Shown piece after piece: positions 3,001 to 6,000 of a stretch of DNA of 64,000 bases. The position numbers are program-made. The number at the start of each line of letters is the position of its first letter. Position 1 is the stretch's first letter. The DNA comes from Escherichia coli O157:H7 (GTDB lineage: Bacteria; Pseudomonadota; Gammaproteobacteria; Enterobacterales; Enterobacteriaceae). The DNA lies in the NCBI RefSeq assembly GCF_013167455.1, contig NZ_CP038328.1, one strand, 5' to 3'.

Positions 3001-6000
3001 GTCAAAGTTAACCATCTGTGCGGCGATGTTTTTCATAAATCCACCCCGTAAATCCAGTCAGTGTTTGTCAGGTCGAGTTTTGGTTTGCTGGCTATCATGC
3101 CTGCCTGTTGCTTGTTACGGTTGATTTCGAGCTGGGTCCACTTGTCGCGGAGTTTGGCCGGACTTAGCACGTTACCGGACCAGAAGTTGTCCTGGCATGC
3201 CCAGCGGAACAGCACGCACATGTCGCGGTGGTTACGTCCGTCACGTTCACGCATCAGGCGGATATCGTTAGCCCACCCTGCAAAATTCGGTTTTCTGGCT
3301 GATGGCGCGATGGTCTTCACCATGTCAAACATCCACTCTGCGGCGGTCAGGTCTTCTGCTGTCCCCCACTTGCTGCCGCTCTGAATTGCAGCATCCGGTT
3401 TCACCACAGGAAGATCGTTTTCTGGTTGGTCAGAGGATTCGCCAGAATTCTCGGACGAAAAAGGTTTTATATTGTCTTTTGTTAGTTTGTCTTTTGTGTT
3501 TACCTGATTCGGGTAAACGCCTTTACCTGATTTGGGTAAACTTTTTTTACCTGATTCAGGTAAATTTACCTCTTTCAGGTAAACTTTATTTTTCTTACCT
3601 GATTCGGGTAATGTTGACCATTCACTGACCACATTATTAATGCCGGTATTCCGCCCGCTCTGAATAAAAATCCCACGCTTTACCAGAACACTTTTTGCAG
3701 CAGAACACTTGTGCGGCAATATCCCGGTTAATTCGGAAAGTTGCTCGTTGCTAACCCAATCCAGTTTTTTATTAAAGCCATATGTTTTGCGCATGACAGC
3801 CAGAAAGACCAGAAGCTGGTGAAAAATTGATAAATTCAATACTGCATTTCTCAGCATTAAATTTATCTCTATGACCAGTCAAGAGATGTACCTGCCATGA
3901 GCTTAATATCATGTCAGATATATCGGTCACAAACTCCCTCAGCAGCTAAGAGGAGGACAAATGTCTCGACTAATCACTTTACGGGACTGGGCTAAAGAAG
4001 AATTTGGGGACTTAGCACCAAGTGAGCGAGTTCTGAAAAAATACGCGCAAGGGAAAATGATGGCCCCACCCGCTATAAAAGTTGGTCGCTACTGGATGAT
4101 TGACCGAAATTCCCGTTTTGTAGGAACGCTTGCAGAACCGCAACTCCCAATAAACGCAAACCCAAAACTCCAACGGATAATCGCTGATGGCTGCTAGCCC
4201 CCGATCTCACAAAATCTCTATACCCAATTTATATTGCAAATTAGATAAGCGAACCGGAAAGGTATATTGGCAATACAAACATCCACTATCCGGTCGTTTT
4301 CATAGCTTAGGAACTGATGAGAATGAAGCAAAACAAGTTGCTACTGAAGCAAATACCATTATTGCTGAACAACGTACCCGACAAATATTAAGCGTCAATG
4401 AGCGTCTGGAAAGAATGAAAGGCAGGCGCTCAGACATTACGGTGACAGAATGGCTTGATAAATATAATTCTATCCAGGAGGACAGGCTGCAACATAATGA
4501 ACTAAGACCCAACTCCTATCGGCAAAAAGGCAAACCCATCCGTCTTTTCCGTGAGCATTGTGGAATGCAACACCTCAAGGATATTACCGCACTTGATATT
4601 GCCGAAATAATTGATGCTGTAAAGGCTGAAGGTCATAACAGGATGGCGCAAGTCGTGAGAATGGTGTTGATCGACGTCTTCAAAGAAGCACAACACGCAG
4701 GACATGTTCCGCCAGGATTTAACCCAGCGCAGGCAACAAAACAACCGCGAAATCGAGTAAACCGTCAAAGATTATCACTGCCCGAATGGCAGGCAATATT
4801 TGACAGCGTAAGCAGACGGCAGCCCTATTTAAAATGCGGGATGCTACTTGCTCTTGTCACTGGACAACGTTTAAGCGATATCTGCAATTTGAAATTCTCT
4901 GATATCTGGGACGACATGTTGCACATTACTCAGGAAAAAACCGGTTCAAAACTTGCTATTCCGCTTAACCTGAAATGCGATGCTCTGAATATTACCCTTC
5001 GTGAAGTTATATCTCAGTGCAGGGATGCTGTTGTTAGTAAATATCTGGTCCATTACCGTCACACTACCTCTCAAGCAAACAGAGGAGACCAGGTGTCTGC
5101 AAATACTCTTACAACGGCTTTTAAAAAGGCCAGGGAAAAATGTGGCATAAAATGGGAGCAAGGAACTGCGCCCACATTTCATGAGCAGCGATCTCTGTCA
5201 GAACGGTTATATCGGGAACAGGGTCTGGATACGCAAAAGTTGTTAGGTCATAAATCCAGAAAAATGACCGACCGATACAATGATGATCGTGGTAAAGACT
5301 GGATTATCGTAGATATCAAAACAGCATAGAAAATAGCCAGTTTTGGGGAAGGGTTTTGGGGAAAGTTTTGGGGAAGATTTTAAATCATCATAAAACAACG
5401 GGCGTGTTATACGCCCGTTTCAATATTTAACACATGTAGTGATTACATATTCTTGATGATCGCGTCACCAAACTCTGAACATTTCAGCAGTTTAGCGCCT
5501 TCCATCAGACGTTCGAAGTCATAGGTTACGGTCTTGGCATTGATTGCGCCTTCCATACCTTTAACAATCAGGTCAGCCGCTTCAGTCCAACCCATATGGC
5601 GTAACATCATCTCAGCAGAGAGAATAATAGAACCTGGGTTAACTTTGTCCTGACCGGCATATTTCGGCGCAGTACCGTGGGTGGCTTCAAACAGGGCGCA
5701 TTCGTCACCGATGTTTGCGCCAGGGGCGATACCGATACCGCCAACCTGCGCTGCCAGGGCGTCAGAAATGTAGTCACCGTTCAGGTTCATACAGGCGATA
5801 ACATCATATTCAGCCGGACGCAGCAGGATCTGTTGCAGGAATGCATCAGCAATCACGTCTTTAATGACGATCTCTTTGCCGGTGTTCGGGTTTTTAACTT
5901 TCAGCCACGGGCCGCCGTCGATCAGTTCACCGCCAAACTCTTCACGCGCCAGCTCGTAGCCCCAGTCTTTAAACGCGCCTTCGGTGAACTTCATGATGTT

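Follow-up and report, generated by a model that had tools for sequence, protein, structure and literature searches.

The 64,000-nucleotide stretch of the Escherichia coli O157:H7 genome analyzed here (hereafter, the window) includes icd, which encodes isocitrate dehydrogenase and is flanked on its left by a defective lambdoid prophage and on its right by rluE, nudJ, mnmA, hflD, purB, and phoPQ. Positions 1–5700 of the window are 100% identical to many E. coli O157:H7 genomes. The features identified where the prophage meets icd are the following:

3961..4197, + strand: xis, excisionase, 78 amino acids (open reading frame; Pfam Exc, PF07825, E 3.7e-5; annotated as excisionase in the phage 21 and O157:H7 records)
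4187..5329, + strand: int, lambda-family tyrosine integrase, 380 amino acids (open reading frame; Pfam domains and structure match)
5340..5350, + strand: putative arm-type site, copy 1, nearest int (equivalent of lambda P'3); exact GTTTTGGGGAA, identical in phage 21 and inside the annotated attP-subsite span
5353..5363, + strand: putative arm-type site, copy 2 (equivalent of lambda P'2); exact GTTTTGGGGAA
5365..5375, + strand: putative arm-type site, copy 3, nearest the core (equivalent of lambda P'1); exact GTTTTGGGGAA
5387..5606, no strand: phage-host homology block inside the P' arm, comprising the terminator and the last ~53 icd codons (alignment of the window, phage 21 attP, and the empty O104:H4 icd locus)
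5397..5419, − strand: icd intrinsic terminator hairpin (terminator scan; 9-pair stem including 6 G-C pairs; T-rich tail on the − strand)
5443..6693, − strand: icd (open reading frame and annotations); the last ~160 nt are prophage-derived, and phage 21 carries a matching icd fragment
5591..5606, no strand: interval predicted from SNP patterns to hold the crossover (core) of the attL junction

The lambda-type xis gene overlaps the start of int. Residues 1–71 of the integrase match the N-terminal arm-DNA-binding domain Arm-DNA-bind_1 (PF09003, E 4.8e-27), and its catalytic domain matches Phage_integrase (PF00589, E 5e-24). The protein aligns over its full length to structures of lambda Int (1z1b, E 1e-54) and is 98.4% identical to the integrase of phage 21. 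The icd terminator hairpin is retained in both the empty site and phage 21 and belongs to the phage-supplied replacement of the icd 3' end.

The remainder of the prophage (positions 1–3960) lacks the entire early-left and immunity region. The xis gene (from 3961) abuts a 5'-truncated replication gene O (3033–3857, − strand), which is followed by P (2335–3036), ren, emrE (1636–2022), and ybcK; emrE encodes an SMR transporter, and the cargo in this part of the prophage resembles that of the DLP12 prophage. A further phage-like block begins after phoPQ, at about 14357–25700 of the window and beyond (positions transferred from the annotation of strain 86-24, where they are 34357–45700), and contains a P27-family small terminase, large terminase, portal, HK97-type protease, capsid, SSB, PerC, and a DUF927 protein. 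The name CP-933O was considered for the prophage at icd and rejected, since the literature ties CP-933O to OI-57 and not to icd.

Sequence and phage origin of the repeats

The three exact 11-mers GTTTTGGGGAA have start-to-start distances of 13 and 12 bp, which bears out the three tandem repeats of the original prediction, and Tandem Repeats Finder reports them as a single array (5339–5381, period 13, 3.4 copies, score 65). The array reaches 5381 because copy 3 is followed by GATTTT (5376–5381), a partial fourth unit. The array begins 10 bp past the stop codon of int (which ends at 5329) and ends 21 bp ahead of the terminator hairpin, with the icd stop at 5443; its placement between integrase and the icd terminator had therefore been described correctly. 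Throughout the 64-kb window the triplet accounts for all occurrences of GTTTTGGGGAA at 0 or 1 mismatch, while the number of 2-mismatch matches elsewhere is at chance level (21 versus 24.3 expected). When the first position is relaxed to R (RTTTTGGGGAA), a 50-kb stretch of a matching genome contains three exact occurrences as compared to 0.06 expected.

Alignment of positions 3900–5601 revealed 98.1% nucleotide identity to phage 21 (M61865 and OL657228), and across the int-xis-att regions of phage 21 and some 25 further lambdoid coliphages the identity to this segment is 98–99%. The three repeats of phage 21 are the same in sequence and spacing as those in the window, and GenBank record OL657228 annotates their span as the attP integration site with three subsites, P1P2P3, and the consensus YYTTCCCCAAAA, which is the reverse complement of TTTTGGGGAARR. 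The phage 21 record gives the source as Paris sewer in the late 1950s, such that the three-copy form of the window is matched by a phage of that date. Position, icd target, and replacement of the icd 3' end are likewise shared with phage 21 attP. The window differs from phage 21 in that it presents a prophage junction in O157:H7 rather than attP, in that the prophage is defective, and in 13 differences across the phage-supplied ~210-bp block comprising the terminator and icd 3' end.

A 101-bp segment bearing the repeats was matched in 1678 of 5426 complete E. coli genomes and is at least 99% identical in 1255 of them, and an integrase was annotated beneath the match in 40 of 40 cases among the matches listed. 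The icd part of the query, in contrast, was matched in 5425 of the 5426, and prophage-free genomes match the query only from about position 5389–5392 onward. The empty icd locus of O104:H4 (3.3 kb) contains no copy of the motif at up to 2 mismatches and has unrelated sequence at the position of the repeats. The comparison with prophage-free icd loci, which had been named as the check that could overturn the original prediction, thus came out in its favor, with the repeats absent from the unoccupied locus and the segment confined to a subset of genomes. Judged from these alignments, the repeats are phage DNA, and the near-identity of int-xis-attP, the location in icd, and the phage-supplied icd 3' end indicate that the element is a phage 21-type, icd-integrating prophage.

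Crossover position and the far arm

The original prediction had left open whether the repeats were arm-type integrase binding sites or the icd attachment junction, and only the former was supported. The repeats fall outside the block of phage-host homology (5387 to 5606). In O157:H7 strain PV15-279, where both prophage ends are present, 6 differences separate the two copies of the ~210-bp block, the last corresponding to window position 5590, and phage-host identity ends at 5606. This suggests that the crossover occurred within about 5591–5606, inside icd, with the nearest repeat roughly 225 bp away and the repeats overall about 225–260 bp away. The repeats were consequently rejected as the att core, or icd attachment junction. 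In favor of arm-type sites are their phage specificity, their position beside an integrase with an arm-binding domain, their occurrence on both arms (see below), and their annotation in phage 21. As for position 5590, it is A in the window and in both K-12 copies of the block, and G in the far junction of PV15-279, in phage 21 attP, and in the empty O104:H4 locus.

The extreme 3' end of icd had also been predicted to differ from the K-12 form, with the difference taken as a sign of phage-supplied sequence. The difference is present (28 positions in about 210 bp), yet as an argument for phage supply it is weak and uninformative because the K-12 icd 3' end was itself supplied by e14. A better reference than K-12 is the displaced native icd copy of an O157:H7 genome, from which the window differs at 6 positions in a six-way comparison of the block.

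Both phage 21 attP (3326–3336 of the phage 21 stretch) and the far end of the O157:H7 prophage (40223–40233 of the PV15-279 stretch) have a fourth copy of the motif, ATTTTGGGGAA, which shares the orientation of the triplet and is located on the opposite arm, about 130 bp beyond the core. Like copy 3, this fourth copy is followed by GATTTT, here after one extra A. Across 50 kb of PV15-279, the three repeats and the fourth copy are the only matches at up to 1 mismatch, as compared to 1.29 expected. Between the core and the fourth copy, the far arm contains two exact matches to the IHF consensus (WATCAANNNNTTR) and an inverted ATTTTGGCTAA that has 2 mismatches to RTTTTGGGGAA and is kept in both phage 21 and the O157 prophage. 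The latter is too weak to call as an inverted site of the lambda P2 kind and could be a chance match.

The first repeat and the fourth copy lie 396 bp apart in phage 21. Repeated dodecamers were reportedly proposed as the arm recognition sites of phage 21 in a 1992 thesis by Schneider. Wang et al. (J Bacteriol, 1997) are said to have examined the arm sites through attP deletions and e14 swaps, and to have placed the minimal phage 21 attP at 366–418 bp with a requirement for the outermost repeated dodecamers; the 396-bp span fits these reported limits. Literature searches for phage 21 arm sites returned only papers that cite Wang et al. 1997 or treat icd integration generally, and the phage 21 genome announcement does not discuss attP.

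Comparison with lambda and related integrases

The layout of the repeats resembles that of lambda, where P'3-P'2-P'1 likewise abut the int stop codon, such that both systems have three direct repeats at or just after the stop. On the other arm of lambda, P1 has the orientation of the P' sites and P2 the opposite one; the fourth copy mirrors P1, and the weak ATTTTGGCTAA mirrors P2. The arm motif is TTTTGGGGAA here; read in the same direction, the lambda motifs are ATAGTGACCT and ATTTTGACTG. The repeats are probably bound by an N-terminal domain of the type that binds the lambda arm sites. The spacing of the repeats differs (12–13 bp here versus 10 bp in lambda), as does their distance to the core (about 225–260 bp versus about 55–85 bp), the longer distance being due to the icd replacement carried by the arm.

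Four further systems were compared, with integrase (Int) identities given relative to the window:

Providencia phage PSTCR8lys: Int 68% identical; ATTTTGGGGAA, ATTTTGGTGGG, and GTTTTGGGGAA after int; no clear far-arm copy within about 1.2 kb
PPompW phages: Int 51% identical; GTTTTGCAGAG three times after int; far-arm copy GTTTTGCAGGA, ~120 bp past the core
vB_EcoS-640R1, next to potC: Int 44% identical; GTTTTGGGGAA, GTTTTGGAGAG, and ATTTTGGAGAA after int
e14 of K-12: Int 56% identical over the first 100 amino acids; GTTTTGATAAC, TTTTTGATAAA, and ATTTTGATAAC beside the terminator; far-arm copy GTTTTGATAAC, ~130 bp past the core

The e14 element uses the same attB in icd and has the same architecture, with a triplet just outside the icd terminator and one copy on the far arm, whereas its motif is TTTTGATAAC, unlike GTTTTGGGGAA here. 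Excision of phage 21 by the e14 system and the converse are reportedly inefficient (Wang et al. 1997), which fits the differing motifs. In the e14 of MG1655, the sRNA C0293, ymfD, ymfE, and lit lie between the triplet beside the icd terminator and intE, an interval that accessory genes seem to have entered by insertion.

In this qualitative comparison of five systems (PSTCR8lys, 640R1, PPompW, e14, and lambda), relatives share the layout, and motif and integrase change together in the more distant ones. A position that is kept while the recognition word diverges is the expectation for a protein site that co-evolves with its integrase, and argues against a structure-based or accidental origin of the repeats.

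Interpretation of the repeats and status of the prophage

Collectively, these observations make it very probable that the repeats represent the arm-type binding sites clustered on the int-proximal (P') side of the att site of a phage 21-type lambdoid prophage in icd. We infer both physical binding by the integrase and the role of each individual site. The cluster is already known, in that it is the annotated arm-site cluster of phage 21 attP, seen here in an O157:H7 prophage. By analogy with lambda, the integrase would be heterobivalent, with its N-terminal domain on the arm sites and its C-terminal domains on the core inside icd. IHF and Xis, the latter for excision, would fold the arms and thereby deliver arm-bound integrase to the distant core, and the fourth copy would act like lambda P1. 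About 210 bp of the P' arm would restore the icd 3' end and terminator, such that icd stays intact and functional in lysogens, and this load would account for an arm that is three to four times the length of that in lambda. In the integrated state, the repeats would form part of the int-side junction (attL, or BOP' in lambda terms) and serve excision. In lambda, integration depends on P'2 and P'3, and excision on P'1 and P'2.

A different protein could in principle be the ligand of the repeats, namely Xis or a host factor that serves as an accessory to recombination. The Xis sites of lambda are, as is textbook knowledge, also tandem direct repeats, and a lambda-type xis gene lies next door; however, the lambda Xis sites occupy the int-distal arm, in the stretch that separates P2 from the core, whereas the triplet is on the int-proximal arm, and the additional single occurrence of the motif on the other arm is the pattern of Int arm sites in lambda. 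This makes an accessory protein highly unlikely as the ligand. It is slightly less probable still that the G-rich, T4G4-like repeats work by structure, through a G-quadruplex in the 3' UTR of the int mRNA or in a displaced DNA strand, with an effect on the expression of int or the stability of its mRNA. There are four G-runs in 37 nt, and quadruplex-aware folding of 5330–5425 yields a minimum free energy of −24.6 kcal/mol with a quadruplex versus −23.5 without, although the gain is only about 1 kcal/mol. Moreover, no Rfam family matches the repeat region, with a scan of 5200–5700 returning only sub-threshold chance matches on the terminator. The equivalents in e14 (TTTTGATAAC) and PPompW (GTTTTGCAGAG) lack G-runs yet have both the triplet and the far-arm copy, which suggests that the conserved property is a repeated recognition word and not G-richness.

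Equally improbable is that the attachment junction itself is what the repeats mark, or that slippage generated them as a microsatellite without function, a reading that the alignments have already largely refuted. Copy number does vary from 2 to 4 in a few genomes, as in a microsatellite, but the junction maps inside icd and away from the repeats, the three-copy form is common to the window and to a phage from the late 1950s and is embedded in a segment that is at least 99% identical in 1255 genomes, and the layout recurs in distant relatives with different motifs in e14 and PPompW. A more speculative and very doubtful extension of the Int arm-site reading is that the telomere-like T4G4 array, being slippage-prone with its 12–13 bp period, is also a tunable element in which copy number (2–4) or a G-quadruplex in the int 3' UTR alters excision frequency or Int expression among E. 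coli lineages.

If the repeats are the P' arm-type sites of the prophage, their present role depends on the partner junction. The 50-kb stretch of strain FORC_044, which is identical to the window over positions 1–5700 and reaches the min genes, contains only the three copies and one core, and an IS1203-bounded deletion takes the place of its far junction and of the genes iraM to ymgF. Missing from FORC_044 (3085–4447 of its stretch) are the P arm, the displaced icd 3' fragment, iraM through bluRF, ymgABC, pdeG, and ymgF, and IS1203 is flanked by two truncated genes, one for an acetyltransferase and one for an autotransporter, near minE. All of these deleted parts are kept in PV15-279 (39446–48534 of its stretch). 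Since the partner att site is deleted in FORC_044, the sites are probably relics there. If the window strain is the same at its far end, which lies outside the window, the prophage would be unable to excise and the sites would be relics in this strain too; in typical O157:H7 the prophage is probably trapped at icd.

Copy number is 3 in the window and phage 21, 4 in O157:H7 Balcarce_14.2, and 2 in O157:H7 Vac_07.1 and 19AR0253. These rare two- and four-copy genomes could reflect replication slippage where constraint is relaxed, or errors of assembly. In strain T16R, the loop and inner stem of the icd terminator are inverted (CGGGCGTATAACACGCCCG as compared to CGGGCGTGTTATACGCCCG at 5397–5419 of the window), which looks like a hairpin-loop inversion, and the integrase of this strain is truncated by IS1.

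As markers of the P' arm in a phage 21-type att site, the repeats can help to delimit prophage ends at icd, although beyond annotation this matters little. Integrase specificity groups with a common target gene can be told apart by the motif word (GGGGAA, GATAAC, or GCAGAG). The fact that int, xis, and the arm sites of the O157:H7 prophage are intact, while the partner junction is deleted in matching genomes, suggests an element that is no longer able to excise.
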